Assembly (NCBI GenBank): GCA_031380185.1 | Contig: JANNFT010000418.1 | Coordinates: 1-39,954, forward strand | Length of the DNA: 39,954 bases | Direction of reading: 5' to 3' | From: Pseudomonadota bacterium | Lineage (GTDB): Bacteria > Pseudomonadota > Gammaproteobacteria > Burkholderiales > JALYOK01 | Shown here: in pieces, positions 531 through 35,828 of the stretch | How positions within the stretch are numbered: position 1 is the stretch's first letter | Layout: the number at the start of each line of letters is the position of its first letter | The notes under the pieces: generated by a model | What the model saw: the letters and a program-made list of their open reading frames with translations, nothing else | What the model was told of the DNA's origin: nothing | Databases searched by the model: none | Made by a program: the position numbers and the translations under genes

Positions 531-2459
531 TCATGGCCCGAGGCCACCCTGTATTTCACCGCTTTCTTGGACAATAGAACCACTATCGCCGGGCGAAATC
601 GTCAAAATCTGTCCTCGGTCAGGATCTTTTTCGCTACGATTCTGCAAGTCCGGCGGGCTCCCCGGCAATAACAATCGAACTGCATCGATCTGATGGCAGG
701 TCTCTTCCAGCGTTGTTGCTACATCGGTCCCGCCCGAAGCCAATAGTTGCGCTCGCATTTTCTTTGCATCGCCGACGTACCCCCACCGGCCAACCAGAAT
801 TTTCAGCTCGGGGAAGCGCGCGCGCAACCGCATGCAGAGCAAACGTGCCTGGGTACCGCCGCCCGGAGGCAACGACGCAATGCAAACCAGCGCTGGCTGA
901 TGCTCGACGGTGCGTGCGATTGCGTCCGACGCTAAGAGCCCTGGATCCATTATTGAAAGGTCCAACCGTGCATTGTCGATACACTCTCGCAACATTGTCA
1001 GGGCGAAGTGATCAGACGCGTCGCGAGCGGGAATACCTAAAACCCGGATCGGGCTATCGACCGGCGGCGCGGAGTCTGAAGAGGGCTGCGCGCCGCCTTT
1101 CGCCTGATTTTCGGACAGAGTGGCAAGATGTTCCGCGACTCCGCGCGCGGCGTCCACCACTGCGCGCTGCTCGTCGTCGCTCAATGCATTGCGTTCCACA
1201 TCACGCCTGCCGTTAGTCAGAGCGGGAATCAATAACGTATCATAGGTCGCCACCAAGGACGCGTTCTCGAGATGAATTTCGGCGACTTCAGATGCTTCGT
1301 CGTGGTCACGCGCAAGGAGGCGCTGATAAAAAACTATTTGCGGTTCAAGTGCCGGCTGATCGCCCAGCAGGGTGTCGAGCACGCTGAGTGATGGGACGTA
1401 CTTGCCTAAGACCAATATACACACGGTCAATGGCGTCGCCAGCACCAGACCAATCGGGCCCCACAGCCAGGTCCAAAACGCAATCATTATCAAGGTTGCC
1501 GTCTCGGAAACGCCAATGCCGCGGCCGTATAGCCACGGCTCGATCAGCATGTTGCTAACGAGTTCGAGTGTTGCAAACAAACCCAGCACCAGCAAAGGCG
1601 TGCTCCAGCCTTCGGAGACGATTAAACTCAAGCCAAGCGGTAGCATGGCGGCGAGCCAGGCGCCGAGGTACGGGATATAGCGCAACACGGTGGCCAGAAA
1701 ACCCCATAGCAAAGCGTACGGAATGCCGATGGCGAATAGGCCGGCGGCAACGGCGAGTCCGTAGGTTCCATTGACAATCAACTGCATTAATAAATATCGG
1801 CTGATGCGATCGCCGGCCTCATCTAACGCCTTCGTTGTCAGCGTGAGGCGGCCGCTTCCCACGATGCTGATTAGACGATCGCGCAAATCTTCGCGCCGCA
1901 GCAGCATGAAAATGACGAGGACGATTGATAGTCCTATCATGGCGATGGGTTCCAACACCGGACTTAACGCGGACCACAAGGCGGGGTACTCAAACGGATT
2001 GCCGTCTTCGACGATTTTTACAGGAAGCGGTGCTTTGCCACGCTGCCCCGTCGGGTCGCGTAACTCCGCCTGTCTGTCAATCTGGCGAGAAATGCGACTT
2101 ACAATGCGCTGCACTTTATCGACGAAACCGCCTTTATCCGGTTGAAAAGCGGCAAGCTTGGAATTGAAGTTTTTTTCATACTGCGGAAAGGTGTCCACCA
2201 CACTCGTCACTTGCCGACTGAGCAACCATCCGAGGGCGACAATTAACGAAAACGCGATGGCGACCACAATCATAACAGCCAATGCGCGCGGAAATCTTAA
2301 GCCCTGGAGCAGTGACACTAGGGGACTTAACAGAAAGGTCAGCAATATCGCAAGCGCAATGGGGACCAGCACGGCTTTCAGCCAGAACAACAAGGCGAGC
2401 ACCACCGCACTGCTGATCAGGATGGCGAAGCCCCGACTTACGTTGGATGTCACTGGCAT
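531..2459 (-). CDS. AI-2E (PerM/YhhT) family transporter with ~250-aa cytoplasmic C-terminal extension
   Basis: 642 aa. The N-terminal ~370 aa is multi-TM with the typical AI-2E pattern. The C-terminal alpha/beta region (RVLGIPARD...LVCIASLPPGG...KILVGRWG) looks like a flavodoxin/B12-binding-like fold. Confidence 0.85.
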   Translation of the reverse strand: MPVTSNVSRGFAILISSAVVLALLFWLKAVLVPIALAILLTFLLSPLVSLLQGLRFPRALAVMIVVAIAFSLIVALGWLLSRQVTSVVDTFPQYEKNFNSKLAAFQPDKGGFVDKVQRIVSRISRQIDRQAELRDPTGQRGKAPLPVKIVEDGNPFEYPALWSALSPVLEPIAMIGLSIVLVIFMLLRREDLRDRLISIVGSGRLTLTTKALDEAGDRISRYLLMQLIVNGTYGLAVAAGLFAIGIPYALLWGFLATVLRYIPYLGAWLAAMLPLGLSLIVSEGWSTPLLVLGLFATLELVSNMLIEPWLYGRGIGVSETATLIMIAFWTWLWGPIGLVLATPLTVCILVLGKYVPSLSVLDTLLGDQPALEPQIVFYQRLLARDHDEASEVAEIHLENASLVATYDTLLIPALTNGRRDVERNALSDDEQRAVVDAARGVAEHLATLSENQAKGGAQPSSDSAPPVDSPIRVLGIPARDASDHFALTMLRECIDNARLDLSIMDPGLLASDAIARTVEHQPALVCIASLPPGGGTQARLLCMRLRARFPELKILVGRWGYVGDAKKMRAQLLASGGTDVATTLEETCHQIDAVRLLLPGSPPDLQNRSEKDPDRGQILTISPGDSGSIVQESGEIQGGLGP

Positions 2460-2696
2460 GCTCTCGATACAATTCGACGCAATGCGGCTGTGATTGTAGT
2501 ACAGCGGAGCCGCTCAATCGTATTCAGATGCTCGTGCGTTTTTACGACGGGGGTTGGGGCGACTTGCTGAAATACACGAAACAGTTTTTGCCGAGCCTTG
2601 GTAAGTTCAACACTTTGTATCGCTAACGTCCGTGTCGTCCTCGAGTTGCGTCCCGCATGAATCAACGGGCGCTCCGGGCGGCCGGCATCGATTCCA

Positions 2697-2897
2697 TCAA
2701 TTGGCTTTTCGTTTTGTGGCGGAACGCTTACGTGCCGAGCCGGCTTGCGTGCCTGAAACTGACAATTTATTCACCGTAGCCCACGCGCGGGCATCTGCTT
2801 CTTCGTCGCTCACGCCGCGTTCCCCGTAACCGTCCTTGATGTGGGTCGCTTGGCGCTTTTGCTTGTCGCTATAAGTTTTGTCATCGCTTCTTGGCAT
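2697..2897 (-). CDS. small hydrophilic protein (family often annotated 'plasmid stabilization protein')
   Basis: 66 aa from the internal ATG at 2897, with GGAG 8 nt upstream. Motif: DKQKRQATHIKDGYGERGVSDEEADARAWATVNK. Confidence 0.6.
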   Translation of the reverse strand: MPRSDDKTYSDKQKRQATHIKDGYGERGVSDEEADARAWATVNKLSVSGTQAGSARKRSATKRKAN

Positions 2898-3153
2898 CTT
2901 GAAATCTCCAAACGTAGAATGGGAAAACTGGAACACGCGGCGAATCGGAAAATTTACGCCGATTTCACCGTGAGGTTTTAAGTCTGAATCGACTAATGCT
3001 AACTATGTGTCAAGGCACGGCGAACAAAATCCCAGCGAAGTTCGAGTCGGCATTGTATTCGAAGCAACGTCGGCGCGCCCTTTCAAAGTCTTTCGAGACA
3101 ACGCTGGGAAAAATTTTATTGCGTGCACGTTAGCCTGGGAAAGTTTGCCGCGC

Positions 3154-3627
3154 TTAGCGGTTTAACGACCAAATTGTAGCGTTCAACAATAGTGCGAAGG
3201 TTACCCATAACAAGTATGGAACCAACAATAATCCCGCGGCAGGTTTTATGCGGTAGAAAACAATTATATTAAGCAAAATCACAAGACATTGGGCGACAAT
3301 ATTGATGAGCGCTAATGCAGGACTGTGAAGGCCGAAAAACAAAGGTGTCCATAACGCGTTCAGAATCAATTGGGCAGAGTAAATCAAAAACGCACGTTGC
3401 CGTGCACGACCGATGCTGGAACTCCATGCAAGGTAGCCCGCATACCCGATGAGCATGTAGAGAGTAATCCAGATCGGACCGAATAACCAGCGTGGTGGCT
3501 CCCACGCTGGTTTATTCAACATTTCATACCACGTGTCAGGCGGGAACGCGGCGCCGATCAGAGTCGGAGCAAAGGCAAGTCCAAAAAAAATGAACAGTGT
3601 CGCGACGGCGTCGCGGGGCGCGTCCAT
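3154..3627 (-). CDS. tspO: TspO/MBR family tryptophan-rich sensory protein
   Basis: Motifs PDTWYEMLNKPAWEPPRWLFGPIWITLY and 5 TM segments. The start is uncertain: the ORF opens at 3672, and I chose the ATG at 3627 because it avoids overlap with the upstream small ORF. Confidence 0.85.
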   Translation of the reverse strand: MDAPRDAVATLFIFFGLAFAPTLIGAAFPPDTWYEMLNKPAWEPPRWLFGPIWITLYMLIGYAGYLAWSSSIGRARQRAFLIYSAQLILNALWTPLFFGLHSPALALINIVAQCLVILLNIIVFYRIKPAAGLLLVPYLLWVTFALLLNATIWSLNR

Positions 3628-3640
3628 CCCCTGCCTATTT

Positions 3641-3844
3641 CTAGTGTTTGCCGTCATGCTGGTTGCGATCATTTCCGGAAAAATCCTTGCACCGTCGGGT
3701 TAGAGCGTCGTAGTCGCCGTCGGCTCGTGCGTTGGACGCGTTGAACTCCGCTTTCGTTTGATCGGTTTTCTTTGTTGCCGTCACATTAATATCTGCGTCG
3801 GAGATTGTCACGGCCGCCGATAAAGCGATTGGTAAACGACTCAT
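3641..3844 (-). CDS. hypothetical small protein, possibly exported
   Basis: 67-aa ORF with AGGA 8 nt upstream of the ATG. The segment KAEFNASNARADGDYDALTRRCKDFSGN resembles small periplasmic A.ADY..AK.KC-type proteins. Ends 13 nt before the chosen tspO start. Confidence 0.35.
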   Translation of the reverse strand: MSRLPIALSAAVTISDADINVTATKKTDQTKAEFNASNARADGDYDALTRRCKDFSGNDRNQHDGKH

Positions 3845-4037
3845 AATTAATTCCTAATTGGCAACAGTTATTAGTGCAGCAAGGAGCGTGCCAGGATACA
3901 GCAAGCGCGGGTTCTCAGAGCCGGCCGGACGCGAGATTATGATAAATAAAGGAGGGGTTCCAATTTTCGGCGGCGCGACCGACAGCCTGTCCCAATGTAA
4001 AACTTACTAGCCAATCGGGAATATTTACCAAGGCGCG

Positions 4038-4142
4038 TTAATGTTCATCGCCGCAGAATAGACGTTTAGCCCTTGCGTGACCGAGCAGGCACTCGGGCAT
4101 TAAAATTGCTTGGTAGTTAGCATCGAACTTATTTTTTTGCAT
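4038..4142 (-). CDS. hypothetical 34-aa ORF with very strong SD
   Basis: MQKNKFDANYQAILMPECLLGHARAKRLFCGDEH, with AAAGGAGGAGGAAG ending 8 nt upstream of the ATG. No family recognised. Confidence 0.3.
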   Translation of the reverse strand: MQKNKFDANYQAILMPECLLGHARAKRLFCGDEH

Positions 4143-4226
4143 CAAAAGACTTCCTCCTCCTTTACCTAATTTCTCCCTCAGTGGTAAAGGATTTGCCCCC
4201 CGATCCAGCCTCGGGGGTCTTTTTTT
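4141..4226 (+). ncRNA. candidate ~85-nt sRNA (CU-rich 5' region, stem-loop, intrinsic terminator), cis-antisense to the 5' UTR of the 34-aa ORF
   Basis: Possible promoter TTGCTT(4106-4111)-N17-TTATTT(4129-4134). CUUCCUCCUCC lies at 4150-4160. An 8-bp stem joins 4159-4166 to 4183-4190, with a CUCCCUC-containing loop. The terminator is at 4196-4226. No plus-strand gene lies upstream that this terminator could serve. Confidence 0.3.
4196..4226 (+). terminator. Rho-independent terminator
   Basis: 7-bp GC stem CCCCCGA/TCGGGGG with a 7-nt loop, followed by TCTTTTTTT. Confidence 0.65.
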
Positions 4227-4724
4227 GCCAGCGTGGCTGTACGAGCCAATGTGAAGTACGTGCTGCGCGCAACACTAAACTTCTTTATGGCATGCGCCTT
4301 GCTCAATAATTTACGGAACGCTGTCCGCGGATCCGTTTAATTTTCAATAGATAGGAGTTATCGTCATGAGGAATTTGCTCGTAGTACTACACATCAATAA
4401 AACGGTGCAGTATCTGCCGTCTGTTGCTGCCGCCGCAATGCAGCCGACTACGACACGGAATCCGGCTGCGGGTAACAAACGCGGTAAACCTGCGAATTGA
4501 CAAGAGCCGGCTATGCGTATTCGATCCAACACCGTAAAACTACTCGCACAGGGATCAGTCGAACAACCTGTCGCTAAAGGTAAGCAGAAATCGTCAAGTA
4601 ACCCGGTCGCTGAAGCACTTCGAGACCGGTCACTTCATCGAAGGAAACTTGAGAATCTACTTAATGGCGTTGGCATCGAACGACTGTATCGCCGGTTGTC
4701 TGACAAACCCCACTAAAGGAAAAA

Positions 4725-5156
4725 ATGATGGACACACATGACACGACACGGCAAGACAAAACGCAACGGATCGTCGGAAAAAATATTTACGACGATCATG
4801 TCGGTCCGGGCCCGGAAATTATGAGCGCTGCGACGCTCACCGGCAACGATGTAGTTAATGTAGCGGGCGAGGCTCTCGGTGAGATCGATGCCATTATGTT
4901 GGACGTTCCGAAGGGCCGCATTGCGTATGCCGTGCTGTCGTTTGGCGGATTTCTTGGCATGGGCGAGAAGTTATTCGCCATTCCTTGGCATGCACTCAAA
5001 CTCGACATCGAAAACAAATGTTTTATTCTTGACGCCAGCGTGGAACACTTGCAAAACGCACCGGGGTTCGACAAGGGACAATGGCCTTCGATGGCTGACC
5101 AAAAGTGGGCGCGCGAAATTCATTCCTACTACTCGTCACCGCCCTACTGGGAATAG
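4725..5156 (+). CDS. PRC-barrel domain protein
   Basis: GNDVVNVAGEALGEIDAIMLDVPKGRIAYAVLSFGGFLGMGEKLFAIPW is a typical PRC-barrel signature. AAAGGA RBS. Confidence 0.85.
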   Translation: MMDTHDTTRQDKTQRIVGKNIYDDHVGPGPEIMSAATLTGNDVVNVAGEALGEIDAIMLDVPKGRIAYAVLSFGGFLGMGEKLFAIPWHALKLDIENKCFILDASVEHLQNAPGFDKGQWPSMADQKWAREIHSYYSSPPYWE

Positions 5157-5177
5157 ATCGGGCGGTGGACGTTTGCC

Positions 5178-5208
5178 GAGGGGCCAGCGCAAGTTGTCCC
5201 CTTTTTTA
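5178..5208 (+). terminator. putative intrinsic terminator after the PRC-barrel gene
   Basis: Short GAGGGG...CCCCT stem followed by TTTTTT. The stem is only about 5 bp. Confidence 0.4.
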
Positions 5209-5554
5209 TACGAGGGTGGCGCCGGATGAATCCCGATGATTTGAATATGTGCAGAGTTAAGCGCCCGACTGATGAATGAATTGCATTCCATCGCGAATAG
5301 CGCCAAGCATGGAAAAATTAGCGCTATTGTTGTAAGTTGTGCCGGCCGCAATACAATCCGCACCCGCGCCGTAATGCGGGCGACCTCTACAAATCTATAT
5401 CGTTCTGCCAGGCGCTAACACGGTAGAAAAGTCGGCGCGGCTTTCGCCGGCGCCGGCCATTATTCCTCTCCCACTTATTTGGCATAGTACTTGCTCCTCA
5501 ATCTGACAGGACCCAACCGGGCCTGATTATCCATACTCTCAAGGAGATTTAACC

Positions 5555-8667: not shown

Positions 8668-9990
8668 ATGCGCAACGCCCCTGTTATTCATTTCTTCGCC
8701 GGTTTGGTCACCCTGAATATTGTCGCGTGCGGTGACGTAGCGACGCTGCCGGAGAAAGCCGGCATTGGACCGCACCCCACGTTACCGGCGCCAAATCCGT
8801 CGTTGATACCGACCGTCAATATCGCCCCCGCCAAAGGTTGGCATGCCGGCAAATCCCCCATCGCGGCGAATGACCTTGCAGTAAGCGCATTTGCGAATGG
8901 CCTTGAGCATCCGCGTTGGTTATATGTTCTTCCCAATGGCGATGTACTGGTTGCGGAGACAAATGCGCCGCCCAAAGAAGGAGGGGGATCAATCAAACAA
9001 TGGGTAACGAAGCTACTGATGAAACGCGCCGGTGCCGGGGCGCCGAGCGCCAACCGAATTTCCCTACTGCGTGATGCCGACAATGATGGTGTTGCAGAAC
9101 AAAAAACGCCGTTTCTGCAGGCGCTGAATTCGCCTTTCGGTATGACGCTTGTAGGTAGCACGCTTTACGTCGCCAATACCGATGCGATCGTACGATTTCC
9201 CTACACCAAAGGGCAAACCCAAATCACAGCGCCGGGCGTAAAAGTAGTCGATCTGCCGGCCGGAAAAATTAACCATCATTGGACCAAAAATGTGATTGCA
9301 AGCCCAGATGGTTCACGTCTTTATGTAACGGTCGGGTCGAACAGTAACGTCGGCGAAAACGGCTTGGTGAACGAAACCGACCGCGCCGCGATTCTCGAAA
9401 TCGACCTGTCGACCGGCCGCTCAAGAGTCTTTGCCACTGGCTTGCGCAATCCGAACGGCCTTGCATGGCAACCGCGGAGCGGAGCGCTTTGGACCACGGT
9501 CAATGAACGGGACGAGATCGGCAGCGACCTCGTTCCCGACTACCTGACCTCGGTGCAGGAGGGCGGCTTTTACGGCTGGCCGTACAGTTATTATGGTCAG
9601 CATGTTGACGCGCGCGTACAACCGCAGCGTCCAGAGTTGGTCGCCAAGGCGCTAGTTCCAGATTACGCGCTTGGCGCACATACGGGTTCGCTCGGGCTAG
9701 TTTTTTATTCAGACAACTATTTGCCCGAACGCTTTGCCGGAGGCGCGTTTATCGCCCAACACGGATCATGGAACCGGAAACCGCGCAGCGGCTACAAAGT
9801 GCTATTTGTACCCTTCTCCGACGGGCTTCCGGATAACGCAGCGGAAGATGTGCTCACCGGCTTTATCAGCCCGGACGGCGAGGCCTATGGCCGCCCTGTG
9901 GGTTTGGCGATTGATCGCACCGGCGCGTTACTTGTTGCCGATGACGTCGGCAATACGGTGTGGCGTGTAAAAACTAAAGCGAGGCCTTGA
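8668..9990 (+). CDS. PQQ-dependent sugar dehydrogenase (sorbosone dehydrogenase / YliI-like) lipoprotein
   Basis: Lipobox NIVAC. Motifs [45 protein letters not shown] and GGFYGWPY. Confidence 0.85.
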
Positions 9991-10069
9991 ACGTCTGGGT
10001 CAAGTCTTCGTCGGAAAAGCGGGGTCAAGTCCTGCAAAACCACGTCTTAACCCACAAAACGCCCGGAAT

Positions 10070-10121
10070 TTGGAACCATAATGTTGAATAACCGAAGGAG
10101 CGGTCAACTGCCGTTTCTAGG
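10070..10121 (+). repeat. 52-nt terminal fragment of the MITE-like element found at 18328..18565
   Basis: 50 of 52 nt are identical to the reverse complement of 18328..18379. It ends in the same 17-mer, CAACTGCCGTTTCTAGG. Confidence 0.7.
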
Positions 10122-10656
10122 TTAAAGCGTTGGCAGTCCTCGCCGAACACGTCCAGCCAGCCGATTCGATAAGTGTCGGATAGATATATCTCTTCGCGCC
10201 CATCGCTACGCGATGTGACGTGGTAGATACTGACTTGATAGACCGTGGCGATTGCTAAGCCTTGACCGACGATGCTGCGAGCTTGCGGCGCTCAATATTG
10301 ATCGGCCTACAGCCAAGTATTCATGCGGCTTTCCAAGCATGCATTGCTGCGAGGCAGGCAGGGAACGGTTCGTGGCACGGCCGTTCTAAACGTAGGTGCG
10401 GGGGTTAGCGGGGAATTCGACCAGCACGCTGGCCGCCCGCGAAGCGACTGCGATGTGGCGCGTAGCGCGTAAGTTGCGGGTGAGGCACGATCCCCAACAT
10501 AGTCGCAATTTCTCGCACGGCCGCTCGCGCAGGTCCGCCGCGAGCGTGTCAGGCCAAATTTATTTTCGTCATGACGTTGAATCGTCCACATGGCGTGGGC
10601 AAGTCAACTCAACACTCGCTTTCTTTGAAATTATGTTGGAATTTATACTTCACCCG

Positions 10657-10736
10657 CAACCGCGCGCGCTTTCGTAGCGTGCGCACCGCGCATGCGAAAA
10701 GTTTCCGTAGGGTGCATTAATGCACCCTACGCCTGC
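10657..10736. repeat. REP-like unit 1 (contains a 24-nt perfect palindrome)
   Basis: CAACCGCGCGCGC..CGTAG.GTGCGCACCG.GCATGCGAAAAGTTTCC followed by GTAGGGTGCATTAATGCACCCTAC (10707-10730). Confidence 0.85.
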
Positions 10737-10826
10737 TTTTTTCTTGATCTCTGCTATGTTTGCGCCTCGCTCCTGTGGCGTGATGCTTGTGCGCAAGATT
10801 TGACCCCGGCGTTTTTTTCTTTATCC

Positions 10827-10908
10827 CAACCGCGCGCGCTCTTTCGTAGGGTGCGCACCGGGCATGCGAAAAGTTTCCGTAGGGTGCATTAATGCACCCT
10901 ACGCCTGC
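10827..10908. repeat. REP-like unit 2, direct repeat of 10657..10736
   Basis: Near-identical to unit 1, with the identical 24-nt palindrome at 10879-10902. The units are about 171 nt apart. Confidence 0.85.
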
Positions 10909-11215
10909 TAAAGCTTCCGTTTGATATCTGATAGAGGCGCAGGATGTGCCCATCGGCATCGGATTGGTAGTTGTAGCCTTGGGCGGCGGCGACAACTAAT
11001 CCGGCACGGGGGGTAAGTTCGCCATACCTCTATCGAACATGCCATAAAGCTTGTCCGCGCCAAGGCGGGGATCAAACCTCAAAGTGTCTCGCGGCAAAGT
11101 CACGGCCTATATTTTTTTTAAAATACCAATTAATTCATTGTGTTCAACGTTATTTTTAATGTAAAATAACAGATATGTCATCCTTTTTCATCAATTGAAT
11201 TTCGGAGAACTGAAC

Positions 11216-15853: not shown

Positions 15854-15883
15854 TTGACGATTGAATAATTACTATGCGATAAT
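15854..15883 (+). promoter_or_regulatory. candidate sigma70 promoter of rpmB-rpmG
   Basis: TTGACG(15854-15859)-N18-GATAAT(15878-15883), about 25 nt upstream of the rpmB ATG. Pattern match only. Confidence 0.35.
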
Positions 15884-15907
15884 TAGTGTTTGGTTTGGAG
15901 CATCGCC

Positions 15908-16144
15908 ATGGCAAGAGAATGCATGATTACCGGGAAAAAGCCGCTTGTCGGCAACCATGTTTCCCACGCAAATAACAAAACCAAACGACGTTTTCTACCG
16001 AATTTACAGCGTCGTAGGATTTGGGTCGAAAGTCAAAATCGTTATATCAGCTTGCGTCTAACCACGTCCGCGCTGCGCACGATCGACAAAAACGGTATCG
16101 ATGCCGTCCTCGCCGATTTGACTGCTGCTGGTATAAAATTCTAG
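15908..16144 (+). CDS. rpmB: 50S ribosomal protein L28
   Basis: [38 protein letters not shown] lies 7 nt upstream. Confidence 0.95.
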
Positions 16145-16155
16145 GGAGATAATCC

Positions 16156-16311
16156 ATGCGCGATAAAATTAAGTTGGAATCCACCGCTGGGACTGGTCAT
16201 TTTTACACGACGACCAAAAATAAGAAGACCATGCCGGAGAAAATGGAAGTGAAGAAATTCGATCCTAAGGCGCGTAAACACGTGATCTATAAAGAGACTA
16301 AGCTTAAGTAA
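16156..16311 (+). CDS. rpmG: 50S ribosomal protein L33
   Basis: 51 aa, below the ORF-track cutoff: [51 protein letters not shown]. Confidence 0.95.
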
Positions 16312-16332
16312 ATCCGCCCGAGGCTGTGCAAT

Positions 16333-16362
16333 AAAAAAGCCCGCTGATGCGGGCTTTTTTAT
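16333..16362 (+). terminator. bidirectional Rho-independent terminator (rpmG / desaturase convergent)
   Basis: AAAAAAGCCCGC-TGAT-GCGGGCTTTTTTATT, with an A-run before and a T-run after a 7-bp GC stem. Confidence 0.8.
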
Positions 16363-16379
16363 TCGGTACAAATGCGTGC

Positions 16380-17579
16380 TTAGGCGTAGCAGCGCAATCG
16401 ACGCGAGAACTCCCGTAACGCCGTAATGCCGCTCGATTCCGCGCGATGGCACCAATCTTCCAGTTGCTTTACGAGCTGCTCGCGAGTCGCATTCGAGCGA
16501 CCCCAAATAGCGTCCAATTCCTGGCGCATCGAATAGACGGTCTTCAACACCGAACTGGAGCTCATCACTGTGTTGAATTTCTCCCGATCCGGCGCCGTCA
16601 AAGCGTCAGGTTCGAGATGCAGCCAATGTTTCAGGGCGCGGAAAACACCCGAATCAGTGATCGTCGATAGTGACGGTATGCGTTGCTTCAGGTATGCGAA
16701 CTCCTCGCTGCAAGTCCGCTGAAGCGCGCGACGATAGTTGTTCAATACTTCGTAGCGATGGGTAATGATTGCTTCCAGGGTTTCGCTATCGCAGGCTGCC
16801 TTTGCTTCGTTGAGTTTCACTTTCGGCGCAATTTTTTTAACTTTCGCCAGGCCTAGAAATTCCAGAATACAAATGTAAACCCAGCCGATATCGAATTCGT
16901 ACCACTTGGTGGAGAACTTGGCCGACGTAGCGTAAGCGTGGTGATTATTGTGTAGTTCCTCGCCACCGATGAAGATGCCCCACGGTATTAAATTGCGGCT
17001 CGCGTCGTCACATTGGTAATTGCGATAACCCCAGTAATGCGCGACGCCATTGATGACACCCGCCGCGAATAACGGAATCCAAATCATCTGCACGGCCCAG
17101 ACCGTGAGGCCCATCGTGCCGAAAAGCACCAGGTCGATCGCCATCATCAAACTTACGCCAAGCGTGTGGTTACTTGAGTAAAAACGTTCCATAAAGTCGT
17201 CCGGCGTGCCGCTGCCAAATCGATCTAACGTATCTTGATTTTTTGCTTCGACGCGATACAGTTCAGCGCCTTCCCACATGACCTTGTTAATGCCCAAAAT
17301 CTGCGGGCTATGGGGATCTTCCGCAGTTTCGCAACGTGCGTGGTGCTTGCGGTGAATAGCGGTCCACGCCTTAGTGCTCTGGCCGGTGGTGAGCCACATC
17401 CAGAAACGGAAAAAATGACACACCGCCGGGTGGAGTTCCAATGCGCGATGGGCCGAATAACGATGCAGATAGACCGTGACGCCAACGATGGTGATATGAG
17501 TCAGGACAAGACATAAAACGATGTATCCCCACCAGGGCAAAACGATGAGTCCGTTAAGTAAATTGTTCAAAAGCTCCAC
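16380..17579 (-). CDS. acyl-CoA (delta-9 type, DesA-like) fatty acid desaturase
   Basis: Histidine boxes HRYSAHR, HRKHHA and HNNHHAY, with TM hairpins. The start is set at the GTG at 17579, which has GGAGA 7 nt upstream; the ORF opens at 17639. Confidence 0.88.
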   Translation of the reverse strand: MELLNNLLNGLIVLPWWGYIVLCLVLTHITIVGVTVYLHRYSAHRALELHPAVCHFFRFWMWLTTGQSTKAWTAIHRKHHARCETAEDPHSPQILGINKVMWEGAELYRVEAKNQDTLDRFGSGTPDDFMERFYSSNHTLGVSLMMAIDLVLFGTMGLTVWAVQMIWIPLFAAGVINGVAHYWGYRNYQCDDASRNLIPWGIFIGGEELHNNHHAYATSAKFSTKWYEFDIGWVYICILEFLGLAKVKKIAPKVKLNEAKAACDSETLEAIITHRYEVLNNYRRALQRTCSEEFAYLKQRIPSLSTITDSGVFRALKHWLHLEPDALTAPDREKFNTVMSSSSVLKTVYSMRQELDAIWGRSNATREQLVKQLEDWCHRAESSGITALREFSRRLRCYA

Positions 17580-17807
17580 TAAGCTGTCTCCAAGGACATG
17601 AATGGAACGAAATTGTACACGTCGCTCCGGGGGACGCAAGCGCTAATTGTCGTAAATTTGTAAACTTTCATACACAAGAAGCGCTTACAACCTAAAAAAT
17701 AATAATTAATAAAAACAATGGCCTGCGAGCCGCTTCCAGACTGGCTCTCAAGGCATTTTGCGGTTTAGTTTGGCGCCAATGAGGCCAACTTAGGCTGAAT
17801 GCAATCC

Positions 17808-18407
17808 TTATTCGAATGGGATTGCGTGCCGCCAATGCTGTTTCCAGTTGTCAATATAGGCTCGGGCAAGTGGTTTATCGTTATAAATCAGCACGACATT
17901 TTCAGCATTGTGCTTCTGCGCCGCCTGCGTAAAATTGAAGCTGCCGGTGATAATTTTAGGGTTCGCCACTTCGGCATCAATCAAAATGATCTTGTTGTGC
18001 GCCGCGCTGTGGGCGCCGTCGAGCCGGATTTCGATTCCGCCATGCTTTAAGTCTTGCAGGATGAAGGCGGCGCCTTTTTCGAATTGTTCGCGATCCGCCA
18101 AAATATTGACGTCGACGCGACGCCGGTGTGCGTCCAGCAGCGCGCGACCAATCGCCTTGTTGGTGAAATTAAAACATTGCACTCGAATGCTTTGCTTCGC
18201 GTCGCCTATCGCCGCAACCATCGCGGCGGTGATATTGTCCCCGGGCGTGAATAGTACTTGAACTTTTGCGGCATTGGTCGTTGTGTCCGCCGCGGCGCCG
18301 CCGGCTAATACGGCCAAAAGGAATAATCCTAGAAACGGCAGTTGACCGCTGCTTCGGTTATTCAACATCATGGTTCCAATAACATTCTTCATAACTTGTG
18401 TGCTCAC
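17808..18407 (-). CDS. periplasmic phospholipase D-family endonuclease (Nuc-like, single HKD motif)
   Basis: HNKIILID...GSFNFT HKD motif, with a signal-like segment LGLFLLAVLAGGAAA. The first ~26 codons lie inside the MITE-like element, so the start is uncertain (GTG at 18407, or ATG at 18392, 18371 or 18368). Confidence 0.8.
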   Translation of the reverse strand: MSTQVMKNVIGTMMLNNRSSGQLPFLGLFLLAVLAGGAAADTTTNAAKVQVLFTPGDNITAAMVAAIGDAKQSIRVQCFNFTNKAIGRALLDAHRRRVDVNILADREQFEKGAAFILQDLKHGGIEIRLDGAHSAAHNKIILIDAEVANPKIITGSFNFTQAAQKHNAENVVLIYNDKPLARAYIDNWKQHWRHAIPFE

Positions 18408-18565
18408 CCATTTGGTGAGAATGCGCTACGGGGCGGATTGCGCGGTTCTGGCGGCGCAGGGTGTCGTTGCAACTCGTTGGAATGGAATGACTATTCCGCC
18501 TCGCCGCGCCTTGCCCTGCACCCCCATAACCGCACACTCCACCCCGTCCAACTGCCGTTTCTAGG
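18328..18565. mobile_element. 238-bp MITE-like non-autonomous element
   Basis: Perfect 17-nt terminal inverted repeats, CCTAGAAACGGCAGTTG (18328-18344) and CAACTGCCGTTTCTAGG (18549-18565). They are flanked by a direct ATAAT at 18323-18327 and 18566-18570. There is no ORF of transposase size. A 52-nt end fragment recurs at 10070-10121. Confidence 0.6.
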
Positions 18566-18589
18566 ATAATGCGAAAAGCTTTGCCGTCG

Positions 18590-19843
18590 TCAAATTTGCC
18601 GTTCCAGCACCGCGGCAAAAAATCCGTCGGTGTTATGGCAATGCGGATAAAGCTGAAACGTTTCGCCGCAGTCGATTTCGATCTGCTGCGCGCGCAGAAT
18701 TTCCTGGCTGTTGGCCAAGCGAAAATCAGTGTTGTTCGCAAGAAAGGCATCGACGATTGCCTCGTTTTCATCATGCAAAATGCTGCACGTCGCATAGACT
18801 AAACGTCCGCCGGGCTTGAGCAAGCGTGCGGCGGCGGCGAGAATGTTGGTCTGCATCACCGCTAATTCAGCGATGTCTTCGGCGCGCTGGCGCCACTTCA
18901 AATCCGGATTGCGGCGCAAGGTGCCGAGCCCACTGCACGGCGCATCGACCAGCACGCGATCGACTTTTCCGGCGAGGCGTTTAACGCGCGCATCTTGCTC
19001 ATGCTCGATCCGTACCGGTTGCACGTTCGACAAACCCGAGCGTTTCAGTCGCGGTTTCAGATTGGTTAGGCGCTTTTCCGATACATCGAACGCGTAAAGC
19101 CGTCCGGTCGAATGCATCAGCGCGCCGAGCAATAAGGTTTTCCCGCCGGAGCCGGCGCAAAAATCGACGACCATTTCGCCGCGTCTGGGCGCCAGCAAAT
19201 AGCCCAGCAATTGACTGCCCTCGTCTTGTACTTCGACGTGGCCTTCAAGCAATAATTTATGCTGTTGCAACGCCGGTTTGCCGGTGACGCGAATGCCGAC
19301 CGGGGAAAATGGCGTGGCACTCGCCTCCACTTCAATTTCGGCTAACTCGGCCAACACCGTAGCGCGATTGGTATGCATCGTATTCACGCGCAAGTCCAAC
19401 GGTCCGGGTTGATCGAGGCCGCGCGCGAGTTCGATCAGTTCTTGCCGGGTGTGGCGTTTTAGGTAATGTTGAATCAACCATTCCGGGAAATTGGTCTCGG
19501 CGGGCAATGACAGATGACCCGGCGCCGCAGCCGCAATGCCGCGTAGCATTTCGCGTTCGTGCGCTTTGGTGAAGCCGCTCATCGCCTTGACGTCCCAGCC
19601 TTGCACTTTCACCAGCGTCGCCAGCAGCAGCAAGCGCGGTTGATCGCTCTGGGTCAAATGCATCAACCACGAACGTTTGCGCAGCAACGCGTAAATCGTC
19701 TCGGCGATCAGGCCGCGATCGCGCATGCCAAGACTCTTGTTGTCGCGAAAAAAATGCCGCAACACGGCATCGGCCGGATGGACAAAACGCAGAACCTGCT
19801 TCGTTGCTTCGAGCAACGCTTCAAACTGGAGCGGAGAAATCAA
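18590..19843 (-). CDS. RsmB/NOP2-family SAM-dependent RNA (cytosine-C5) methyltransferase
   Basis: DFCAGSGGKT and DAPCSGLGTLRRNPDLKW motifs, and a catalytic ATCS motif. Confidence 0.88.
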   Translation of the reverse strand: MISPLQFEALLEATKQVLRFVHPADAVLRHFFRDNKSLGMRDRGLIAETIYALLRKRSWLMHLTQSDQPRLLLLATLVKVQGWDVKAMSGFTKAHEREMLRGIAAAAPGHLSLPAETNFPEWLIQHYLKRHTRQELIELARGLDQPGPLDLRVNTMHTNRATVLAELAEIEVEASATPFSPVGIRVTGKPALQQHKLLLEGHVEVQDEGSQLLGYLLAPRRGEMVVDFCAGSGGKTLLLGALMHSTGRLYAFDVSEKRLTNLKPRLKRSGLSNVQPVRIEHEQDARVKRLAGKVDRVLVDAPCSGLGTLRRNPDLKWRQRAEDIAELAVMQTNILAAAARLLKPGGRLVYATCSILHDENEAIVDAFLANNTDFRLANSQEILRAQQIEIDCGETFQLYPHCHNTDGFFAAVLERQI

Positions 19844-25604: not shown

Positions 25605-26567
25605 ATGACTGACTCGCACCAATTATCTCGCCGTAACTTTTTAAAGCTCGCCGGCGCCACAACGATTGCAGCCGCCAGCCTAAACGCACGCGCCGCCGAC
25701 GACGAAAAAGAGGACGCCAAGGACGACAATAAAACTACCGTGATGACCGATGACGGCACCGATCTGCATTTCATCGCCAAAGGCACGGGCAAACCGCTCA
25801 TCATGATTCCCGGCTGGTCGCAAACTGCGGCCATGTACAAGCATCAAATCGATGCTTTGTCGGACAATTATCGCTGTATCGCCATCGATATGCGCGGACA
25901 CGGCGATTCCGAAAAGGTCGCGCACGGCTATCGCATGCAACGCCTCGCGGCCGATTTGCGCGCGTTTATTTATTATGAAGATCTCGCCGATGTGACCTTG
26001 ATGGGGCACTCCATGGGCTGTTCCGTGATCTGGTCCTATTGGGATATGTTTTCAGGCGATCGCGTCGCCAAAGTAATTCTGATCGATCAAGCGCCGACAG
26101 TGACGAGTCAGCCAGGTTGGAGCGACGCGCAAAAGGCCGAAGCCGGCGCGATTTTCGATCCGCCTACGCTGTACGGCATCGCCGCCGGATTACGCGGCCC
26201 GGACGGCGTGAAAACCACAGAAGGTTTTTTCGCGCCGGAAGGCATTTTTTTCACCAAAGCTTTTCCGCAAGATCAGCGCAACTGGGCGCTGCAGCAAAAT
26301 CTGAAGTTCCCACGCAAGCACGCCGCCGAGTTGCTGTTGAATCATTGCACACAAGATTGGCGTGACGTGATTCCACGCATTAATAAACCGACGTTGGTCG
26401 TCACCGGCAAAGCGAGTTTCTTCCCGCTGAAATCGCAAGAATGGATCGCCAATCAAATTAAAGGCGCGAAGCTTGAAGTGTTCGCTGCCGAAGAAGGCGG
26501 AAGTCATTTTATGTTCCTGGAGAATCCAGACAAATTTAATAAAGTGGCGCGGGATTTCTTAGGGTAA
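25605..26567 (+). CDS. Tat-exported alpha/beta-fold hydrolase
   Basis: Twin-arginine signal SRRNFLKLAGATTIAAASLNARA. HG-box IPGWSQT and nucleophile elbow GHSMG. Confidence 0.85.
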   Translation: MTDSHQLSRRNFLKLAGATTIAAASLNARAADDEKEDAKDDNKTTVMTDDGTDLHFIAKGTGKPLIMIPGWSQTAAMYKHQIDALSDNYRCIAIDMRGHGDSEKVAHGYRMQRLAADLRAFIYYEDLADVTLMGHSMGCSVIWSYWDMFSGDRVAKVILIDQAPTVTSQPGWSDAQKAEAGAIFDPPTLYGIAAGLRGPDGVKTTEGFFAPEGIFFTKAFPQDQRNWALQQNLKFPRKHAAELLLNHCTQDWRDVIPRINKPTLVVTGKASFFPLKSQEWIANQIKGAKLEVFAAEEGGSHFMFLENPDKFNKVARDFLG

Positions 26568-26574
26568 AGAGAGC

Positions 26575-26743
26575 GGGGTCAGGTCTCAATGCTGTTCGCT
26601 TAAGTTCCAATGCGGTTCGCTTAAGCTCGTTCGCCCTGAGCCGTGAGCTTGTCGAGCGGTCGAAGGGTAAATGGGCTTCGATCGTTCGACAAGCTCACGA
26701 CTCAGCCCGAACGGCGAAACGAACAGTATTGAGGCCTGACCCC
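26575..26743. repeat. 169-bp nested palindromic (REP/BIME-like) element
   Basis: The outer 24-nt arms, 26575-26598 and 26720-26743, match at 22 of 24 positions. The inner 23-nt arms, 26637-26659 and 26683-26705, match at 21 of 23. A partial third copy of the arm end (GAGGCCTGACCC) lies at 26812-26823. Confidence 0.85.
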
Positions 26744-35508: not shown

Positions 35509-35636
35509 AAGAAAACTCGCGTTATGCCTTGTAATCCAGTATAACGCCACAATATCTATTCATCGATCATGTCTTTGGGATCGCCCTCGCGTATCACCTC
35601 TCGGTGCCACCCCGGTCTAATTCCATCGTCCTGCTC

Positions 35637-35777
35637 GAGAAGCTCTGAATTATTGCGAGTTCTAAGCGAGACAACGCGCGAACAAAAAATATCGACTTAG
35701 TATAGTGGGAAAATACTGAGATATTTTCTGCGCGCAACGCAGTGGCGCAATGAAATCGGAATAATTCAGAGCTTCTC
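35637..35777. repeat. 18-nt perfect inverted repeat pair enclosing 105 nt, upstream of csp
   Basis: GAGAAGCTCTGAATTATT at 35637-35654 and AATAATTCAGAGCTTCTC at 35760-35777. No flanking direct duplication was seen. Confidence 0.8.
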
Positions 35778-35828
35778 TAGATGCTTGGCGCAATCCTGCG
35801 CTAGGCCACGCCTTATTCGGAGGACATT

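Follow-up and report, generated by a model that had tools for sequence, protein, structure and literature searches.

A probable 238-bp MITE of an IS1380-linked family in the signal-peptide codons of a Nuc-like nuclease gene

Contig JANNFT010000418.1 (assembly GCA_031380185.1), from a Pseudomonadota bacterium assigned to the Burkholderiales, is a stretch of 39,954 nucleotides, referred to below as the window. Its minus strand carries a gene for a PLD-family nuclease, the first codons of which are read from a 238-bp segment bordered by inverted repeats. The locus raises the question of what this segment is, where it comes from and what it has done to the start of a secreted enzyme. With a probability of about 0.85, it is a MITE (miniature inverted-repeat transposable element) of a family linked to IS1380-like insertion sequences (ISs), inserted in the signal-peptide codons of the nuclease gene. 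A MITE had been proposed in the original prediction, made from the letters of the window; this proposal is supported by the repeats, the duplication, the absence of a transposase, dispersed copies, an empty site and an autonomous partner.

Boundaries of the element and its empty site

The element spans positions 18328-18565 and exhibits perfect 17-nt terminal inverted repeats (TIRs), CCTAGAAACGGCAGTTG at 18328-18344 and its reverse complement at 18549-18565, within a 5-bp duplication, ATAAT. If up to three mismatches are allowed, the window contains the 17-mer 3 times, as compared to a mean of 0.09 in shuffled sequences, none of 100 shuffles giving 3. These repeats, the ATAAT copies, a CGGTTAT motif near both ends and a 52-nt copy of one end had all been pointed out in the original prediction, and all of them are in place. 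CGGTTAT is treated as incidental, because its positions are not conserved in the family alignment. The 52-nt copy (10070-10121, plus strand) is truncated and 96% (50/52) identical to the 18328-18379 end. It corresponds to the last 52 nt of the transposase-sense strand (defined below), inverted repeat included, and is followed by TTAAA (10122-10126), which agrees with the target pattern of the family. The parts of the locus are the following, the parent being the IS described in the next section.

17808-18392, minus strand: PLD-family Nuc-like nuclease gene, 194 aa as called in public assemblies
18323-18327: target-site duplication, copy 1, ATAAT (gene strand ATTAT); family consensus N-T-N-A-N
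18328-18344, minus strand: TIR, 3' end of the structured transposase-sense strand, side of the parent's right end
18345-18402, minus strand: poorly conserved segment, unpaired in the family alifold, with the in-frame ATG codons 18392, 18371 and 18368
18403-18419, minus strand: conserved small hairpin CTCACC-AAAT-GGGTGAG, with GTG 18407 in its 3' arm
18423-18430, minus strand: conserved linker CGTAGCGC, counterpart of GGTAGCGG in the parent's 5' untranslated region
18428-18547, minus strand: long irregular element-specific hairpin, with arms 18428-18461 and 18514-18547 and an apical stem-loop
18549-18565, minus strand: TIR, 5' end of the transposase-sense strand, side of the parent's left end, with TAG 18563-18561
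18566-18570: target-site duplication, copy 2, ATAAT
18561-18593, minus strand: remnant of the ancestral nuclease start, TTG and 9 codons (MTTAKLFALS), then the element TAG
18590-19843, minus strand: upstream rsmB-like gene for a 16S rRNA C5-methyltransferase, with a stop that overlapped the ancestral start of the nuclease

On the gene strand, the 18328-18344 repeat reads CAA CTG CCG TTT CTA GG, that is QLPFLG in the nuclease frame. The segment 18345-18402 is partly paired in the minimum-energy fold of the window copy itself, unlike in the family alifold. The small hairpin at 18403-18419 is homologous to a hairpin of the parent IS, GTCACCC-GAT-GGGTGAG, which carries the ATG of the transposase. 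The relic of this ATG, at 18411-18409, is not in the nuclease frame.

An allele without the element has been found. The top match of a protein search with the restored protein is P0001, 180 aa long and 98% identical over its full length. Its N-terminus, MTTAKLFAVLLL = MTTAKLFAVLLLAVVAGGAVADTTT, starts from TTG and is the one predicted by the restored junction. Distant orthologues (58-77% identity) likewise all possess a short signal peptide of ~21 residues with A-x-A before DTT. Contig L001, aligned to the minus strand of the window, is collinear up to ...AAGCTTTTCGC and resumes from TTGGCCGTA...; the window has exactly 243 extra nt (238 + 5), and in L001 the TTG start and the upstream gene have 4 nt in common. 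Both the empty site and the restored junction foreseen in the original prediction are therefore documented. The length of the duplication, which it had left at 2-5 bp, is settled as 5 by these 243 nt and by 50 of the 80 complete copies described below.

The alternative that the 238 bp are native, for example a leader RNA of the nuclease gene that the relative lost by deletion, is barely conceivable. RNA of 18300-18600 does fold very stably (-136 kcal/mol, z = -7.4), which speaks in its favour. A deletion in the relative fits poorly with boundaries that bear terminal repeats and a duplication, with near-identical ends in unrelated contexts at at least 114 loci, and with the short, uninterrupted signal peptide of all the lower-identity orthologues.

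The inserted allele is present in two further assemblies, L205 (MAG, metagenome-assembled genome, GCA_031431895.1) and L206 (ERZ27315235:k141_6435927). L205 is 99.94% identical to the window over 3585 nt, with an identical element, while L206 is 98.3% identical; the 194-aa nuclease protein is the same in all three. The divergence of L206 from the window is uneven: 2 of 758 positions differ in the element and native nuclease part, as against 15 of 265 at the 3' end of the rsmB-like gene and 5 of 168 in the downstream spacer. This mosaic pattern suggests that the allele was moved by recombination.

To note, the comparison of L001 with window 15873-18691 is also patchy. The 3' end of the rsmB-like gene is 97.5% identical and the part from the nuclease to L28 only 85% overall, while beyond the L28 side L001 has no BLAST match to the window, despite a 98% identical nuclease protein. 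Recombination has made the region a mosaic in these populations. Contig L002, 99.5% identical to the window, ends at window position 18266, 62 nt before the element, a break that fits a repeat or an insertion polymorphism disrupting the assembly. L002 and L003, contigs of near-identical strains, both contain the truncated copy at 10070-10121 and start ~50-90 nt upstream of it.

A dispersed family and its autonomous partner

When 185,579 species genomes were scanned for the exact 21-mer made of the repeat and four subterminal bases, at least 114 stretches with element ends were recovered in other genomes, all from Beta- and Gammaproteobacteria. The further copies that the original prediction proposed to look for are thus numerous, beside the truncated one in the window. 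The taxa comprise Comamonadaceae, Oxalobacteraceae, Rhodocyclales, Nitrosomonadales-like MAGs, Hydrogenophilales, Chromatiaceae (including Thiohalocapsa halophila) and Rhodanobacteraceae; copies occur in the isolates Ottowia beijingensis, Undibacterium arcticum and Denitromonas halophila. Since the scan required an exact 21-mer, ascertainment accounts in part for the conservation of the ends across these taxa.

Pairing of the repeats yielded 80 complete copies, 49 of which measure 228-238 bp (modal size 232-238 bp), the others being shorter (108-170 bp) or longer (245-340 bp). A perfect 5-nt direct repeat that fits N-T-N-A-N flanks 50 of the 80, with duplications such as ATAAT, TTGAA, TTAAA, TTCAA, ATGAT, GTCAC and others. 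Solo repeats are for the most part degraded copies or copies at contig ends; the ORFs adjacent to the 43 solo repeats include no transposase next to any of them, and they have no transposase in common. With a crude ORF caller, the orientation relative to neighbouring genes displays a weak bias (41 versus 26 for the upstream gene).

A coding function of the element was rejected: copies of 233, 234, 235 and 237 nt shift the frame, and all three codon positions are conserved. An ORF from a TTG in one repeat to the TAG in the other was discarded for the same frame-inconsistent lengths. Long open frames on both strands are common in the GC-rich copies of the family without being coding.

A habit of insertion at stop codons was observed. 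Of the 50 copies with a perfect duplication, 15 (30%) have a central T-N-A that serves as stop codon for an ORF of 100 codons or more, while 6.9% of control N-T-N-A-N sites in the same loci (L008-L121) are such stops. Examples are L120:4268-4384, L102:4100-4233 and L117:6044-6279. As the stop is restored by the duplication, the protein is not altered by such insertions. On the strand opposite to transposase sense, A occupies the centre of the duplication in 17 cases, T in 2, G in 18 and C in 12, and at stop codons the structured strand is antisense to the gene in 16 copies and sense in 6 (n = 22). This asymmetry could reflect asymmetric target recognition or selection.

Plasmids gave access to the partner. 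A BLAST search of the PLSDB plasmids with the whole element returned one partial match, and a short-query search (E up to 10) revealed copies in Polaromonas and in Variovorax/Hydrogenophaga plasmids. A plasmid of Polaromonas sp. P1-6 (L125) carries a 234-bp copy of the element and, 357 bp away, a further repeat, which adjoins the stop codon of a gene annotated as a transposase. The corresponding IS (L125:3592-5224, 1633 bp) has the ends CCTAGAAACGGCAGTTAG and CCTATTTTCGGCAGTTAG, with TTTAA on both flanks. Its 510-aa transposase, encoded at L125:3606-5138 on the minus strand, matches Pfam PF13701 with 86.5 bits (threshold 34.7), and its top NCBIfam match is IS1380 (NF033539; 155.5 bits, E 1.6e-45). 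It is 22% identical (E 4e-18) to the transposase of ISEcp1, which in plasmid pC15-1a is annotated as IS1380-like and has the ends CCTAGATTCTACGT and ACGTGGAATTTAGG, beginning with CCTAGA and CCTAAA.

A metagenome scan with the Polaromonas transposase identified at least 540 relatives, and 79 metagenome loci contain an IS of ~1639 bp with ends of the type CCTAnnnnCGGCAGTT. In locus L183 the IS reads ATAAT|CCTAGAAACGGCAGTTGAACC...GTGACTGCCGTTTTTAGG|ATAAT, with the ends CCTAGAAACGGCAGTTGA...TTTTTAGG, and in L160 it reads CCTAGAAACGGCAGTTGAATC...CAACTGCTGTTTCTAGG; some copies end exactly with CCTAGAAACGGCAGTTGA. The IS copies are 1633-1666 bp long, with CCTAG... ends, one ORF, and 5-bp flanks TTTAA, ATAAT, GTGAT and TTGAG. 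Members of the IS1380 family, according to ISfinder, have CC... ends, a 4-5 bp duplication and one ORF in ~1.6-2 kb. The autonomous parent that the original prediction suggested to search for therefore exists as a set of ISs with the same ends (L125:3592-5224, L183, L160 and relatives). Between the element and these ISs, 16-18 of the terminal 18 nt match, as do the duplication length and the target pattern. At E up to 1e-20, the protein family of the transposase comprises at least 7987 members, nearly all of them without a name.

The likeness extends inward. The left end of the IS has a ~60-nt leader with GGTAGCGG, then the hairpin GTCACCC-GAT-GGGTGAG, with the transposase ATG in its loop. Read from the TIR-GGACG strand, the MITE comprises a repeat, the long hairpin, CGTAGCGC, CTCACCC-NNNN-GGTGAG, ~60 variable nt and a repeat. 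Common to both are the TIR, then GTAGCG, then TCACCC-N3/4-GGGTGA with the transposase ATG. Because the order of the element matches the 5' architecture of the IS, the TIR-GGACG strand is the transposase-sense strand; in the window it is the minus strand, which is also the sense strand of the nuclease. The core of the long hairpin was not found by nhmmer in the IS loci L126-L204. Outside the genome-scan loci and the window, its matches are the MITE copies in L125, L205 and L206 only, and it is therefore taken as specific to the element. Short variants have lost the long hairpin wholly or partly, and long variants bear extra self-contained stem-loops at its tip and in its internal loops. The element is most probably an internal-deletion derivative of an IS1380-like IS, having kept the left end, a piece of 5' untranslated region, the transposase start-codon hairpin and the right end, and having gained the ~120-nt internal hairpin. 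A partner transposase would act in trans on the two 17-nt ends.

Mobilisation by another family that duplicates 5 bp, such as the miniature elements of the Tn3 family called TIMEs or the IS3/IS2 group, with a coincidental IS1380 match, is highly improbable. TIMEs are non-autonomous, measure a few hundred bp and also give 5-bp duplications in AT-rich DNA (PMC4133298). Their ends are 38-bp Tn3-type repeats of the GGGG type, in contrast to the 17-nt CCTAG... ends of the element. Moreover, a coincidence would have to cover 16-18 of 18 terminal nt, the duplication length and the target, as well as the internal 5' sequence common to the element and the IS1380-like ISs.

The likeness to IS1380 and ISEcp1 lies in the partner transposase, whose best match is IS1380 and which aligns with that of ISEcp1, in element ends that begin with CCTAGA as does CCTAGATTCTACGT, and in the organisation of the partner IS, a single ORF in ~1.6 kb with a 5-bp duplication in an AT-rich target. 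The differences are that the window element has no transposase, that the partner transposase has 510 aa as compared to 420 aa for ISEcp1, with 22% identity, and that no outward promoter was detected in the element, unlike the known one of ISEcp1. The first 8 nt presumably also resemble a piggyBac end. The CC-initial ends and the T-(N)-A-centred target recall the CCC... ends and TTAA target of piggyBac; the duplication is 5 bp instead of 4 bp and the host is bacterial. IS1380 transposases have been described as the prokaryotic outgroup of piggyBac (PMC10813416).

With MITEs of the ERIC and Correia type, the element shares its short size, terminal repeats, target duplication, many copies and an imperfect palindrome. 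ERIC, Correia, NEMIS, RUP and BOX elements are short and dispersed, with terminal repeats and long imperfect palindromes, and lie in or near transcription units. Correia elements target TA, whereas the present family targets N-T-N-A-N with a 5-bp duplication, and no sequence similarity between them was found. Bacterial MITEs with an RNA-level fold have been reviewed (PMC10969869), and IS1380 is not mentioned there. Six k-mers of the repeat were absent from the full-text literature searched, and the literature searched on IS1380 with MITEs or non-autonomous elements describes no such element; the family is apparently undescribed. With it, a large and mostly unnamed group of IS1380-like ISs, whose transposase relatives number at least 7987, is connected to a non-autonomous derivative that is widespread.

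Some further copies have their own particularities. On the plasmid NZ_LR594677.1 of Variovorax sp. PBS-H4, a 177-bp copy (L124:4001-4177) splits a long ORF (2305-4068 and 4176-5471, minus strand) whose translation looks transposase-like by eye; the downstream part starts MAQLPFLG..., read out of the repeat in the QLPFLG frame. An 18-nt repeat end matches twice in each of three Hydrogenophaga plasmids, and two viral contigs, L122 and L123, contain the 17-mer. Loci L133-L142, on metagenome contigs LNAO01/LNAQ01, hold about ten near-identical 1639-bp IS copies. Their flanks are target-like and non-identical (e.g. TTTAT...ATAAT, ATAAT...ATGAA), which suggests recombination between copies in one genome.

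Old and new starts of the nuclease

The top solved-structure match of the nuclease is 1BYR, the Nuc endonuclease (E 4.6e-24). Its native part is restricted to 17808-18322: codons 1-22 of the called gene (18392-18327) derive from the element, except that the Gly22 codon is completed by the final base of the duplicated ATTAT. The insertion point lies between codons 9 and 10 of the signal peptide, and that the old start has been lost is evident from the structure of the locus. The old TTG overlaps the TGA of the rsmB-like gene as TTGA, an overlap described in the original prediction, and now heads a 10-codon ORF ending at TAG 18563-18561. Ribosomes coming from the rsmB-like gene would halt at this TAG, so that translational coupling between the two genes would be lost. 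In the window copy, neither a sigma-70-like promoter site nor a terminator-like site was detected inside the element in the nuclease direction; the operon transcript is for this reason expected to still cross the element. The original prediction had also offered a promoter donated by the element as a possibility, and the promoter result leaves this idea unsupported.

The nuclease frame is open into the element for 22 to 27 codons, with the four in-frame starts listed in the original prediction: GTG 18407 and ATG 18392, 18371 and 18368. Public gene calls use ATG 18392 (194 aa). Exact-protein look-ups found no record of the 199-aa product of the GTG start or of the 417-aa rsmB-like ORF. The nuclease, if still made, would begin at one of the three ATG codons and acquire a longer, still signal-peptide-like N-terminus (...NNRSSGQLPFLG-LFLLAVLAGGAAA|D). 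This chimeric N-terminus has a net charge of +1 or +2 ahead of its hydrophobic core, a 12-residue Kyte-Doolittle mean of 2.7 in the core (2.8-3.0 in the ancestral one), and the A-x-A before D. In the centroid structure of the RNA, the start region is unpaired (it is partly paired in the minimum-energy fold) and the QLPFLG codons lie within the terminal stem. Judged from these features of the sequence, the use of an internal start is plausible.

As a side observation, the relic transposase ATG (18411-18409) heads a 17-codon ORF (18411-18358, minus strand) in another frame. It overlaps all three candidate nuclease ATGs and could interfere with or couple to their use.

Several results count against the scenario as a whole, that is a MITE of IS1380-type ancestry that has given the nuclease a new start. 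The ten bases around the target differ between the window and L001 (AGTTTTGCTA versus ATTATTCCTT) and the L001 target is AGTTT, not ATTAT; the 5-bp duplication at this site is therefore deduced from the length and the family pattern. The 155.5 bits of the partner transposase fall below the curated IS1380 cut-off of NCBIfam, 180, so it is considered a divergent relative and not a certified member. No transposase was found at the at least 114 genome loci or in the window, where the partner transposase was sought by tblastn over the 39,954 nt, and mobilisation in trans is for this reason deduced from the shared ends only. At the nuclease, Shine-Dalgarno pairing is weak at all internal starts (-0.9 to -4.0 kcal/mol), and, in the folded RNA, the codons that immediately follow the starts are masked by the 17-bp terminal stem. 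Finally, 2 differences in 758 positions are too little divergence to demonstrate purifying selection on the nuclease.

The last three points also serve the view that the insertion simply inactivated the nuclease, leaving a young, undecayed pseudogene with a fortuitous open frame. It has a real share of the probability, although we lean away from it. It would also account for the absence of an internal promoter-like site, for L206 and the window differing by one synonymous change over 520 nt of native coding sequence, too little to test selection, and for the open frame itself, since GC-rich copies are often open on both strands without coding. It accounts less well for a frame that stays open over 22 to 27 codons with four in-frame starts, for an n-region of positive charge ahead of a hydrophobic core of the usual strength, and for an allele present in three assemblies, one with flanks 3-6% different, without any disabling mutation. 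The pairing at the ancestral TTG is, besides, equally weak (-3.9 kcal/mol).

Rickettsia palindromic elements, intragenic MITEs that add residues to the product of their host gene (PMC10969869), resemble the present case in that an element in a coding region contributes residues. They differ in that the incoming frame is here stopped by the TAG of the repeat, and that the element would supply a new start. An in-frame element of the Rickettsia type was rejected, the frame being neither conserved across copies nor read through in the nuclease.

The locus provides a clean case, found in nature, of a secreted enzyme whose start has been rewired by a piece of a transposon: coupling would be lost, a new start is required and the signal peptide would become chimeric. 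Since occupied and empty alleles exist in related environmental populations, the consequence is directly testable. A transposon fragment landing in a gene start is an ordinary kind of event; the conserved fold of this one is unusual.

A fold conserved on one strand, and other repeats of the window

RNAalifold was applied to each strand of the 49 full-size copies. The transposase-sense strand yields -83.4 kcal/mol and 56 pairs, 35 of them with compensatory changes, as compared to -35.3 kcal/mol for the opposite strand. On the named structure, 96.1% of cells are paired (77.6% in shuffles) and 452 cells are changed on both sides (127 in shuffles), while slide controls, in which the partner was moved by 1-3 columns, give 33-42% paired. 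G·U cells outnumber A·C cells 14-fold on the transposase-sense strand (287 versus 20). When the count is limited to pairs that at least 60% of copies form as Watson-Crick, the figures are 125 and 20, and the pairs leaning to G·U number 25 versus 5 leaning to A·C (p = 3e-4). If the same structure is read on the other strand, ~86% of its cells would pair, as computed. Unpaired core positions are 31% A and 10% T. A general G+T mutational skew was rejected as the cause of the G·U excess, the GC skew of the 3' variable region being 0.001.

This asymmetry suggests selection on one strand, be it as RNA or as single-stranded DNA. Compensatory evolution confined to one strand is not usually seen in the remnant of a transposon, and it suggests that the hairpin does more than take part in cut and paste. 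Rfam 15 has no match at gathering score in the window, and 18250-18650 gives chance-level scores only (E 0.15 or worse). Tentatively, and with more doubt than confidence, the ~120-nt core and the start-codon hairpin may constitute a functional RNA module carried by a transposon and selected on the transposase-sense strand. Such a module might dampen the partner transposase or reshape the expression of host or adjacent genes, and the stop-codon insertion habit (30% versus 7% in controls) would then be part of the persistence of the family. A simple read-through RNA model is weakened by the structured strand being antisense to the gene at 16 of 22 stop-codon sites.

That orientation, which selection on read-through transcripts does not explain, speaks instead for a constraint acting on single-stranded DNA, for example by snap-back of one strand during transposition or replication, an explanation that is possible but rather unlikely. 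G·T being the most stable DNA mismatch, the same excess of G·T over A·C is expected in DNA, and the window copy has no conserved promoter. We know of no resolved transposition chemistry for IS1380-type elements, a point that also counts in its favour. On the other hand, the terminal repeats and 5-bp duplication point to a double-stranded DDE mechanism, and the unpaired core is A-rich and T-poor (31% versus 10%), as in structured RNAs. The long variants with self-contained stem-loops and the identity of the structured strand also argue for RNA: it is the transposase-sense strand, including the start-codon hairpin, an RNA-level device in the parent.

The window contains other repeats. Two 77-nt direct repeats (10661-10737 and 10833-10909), 96% identical and 172 nt apart, with the palindrome CGTAGGGTGCATTAATGCACCCTACG, look like REP-type repeats; L002 and L003 lack one 172-nt unit. 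They are located in the same gene-poor stretch, 9990-11195, as the truncated copy of the element. An intergenic 29-nt inverted repeat (90% complementary) around 89 nt, at 35634-35780, may be a second, unrelated miniature element. Finally, an inverted repeat of 38 nt, 87% complementary around a loop of 10 nt, is found at 26628-26713, just after an ORF ending at 26567, and its sequence (…CCCTGAGC…GTCGAGCGGTCGAAG) resembles repeat units in the element subfamily formed by L101, L111 and L121.

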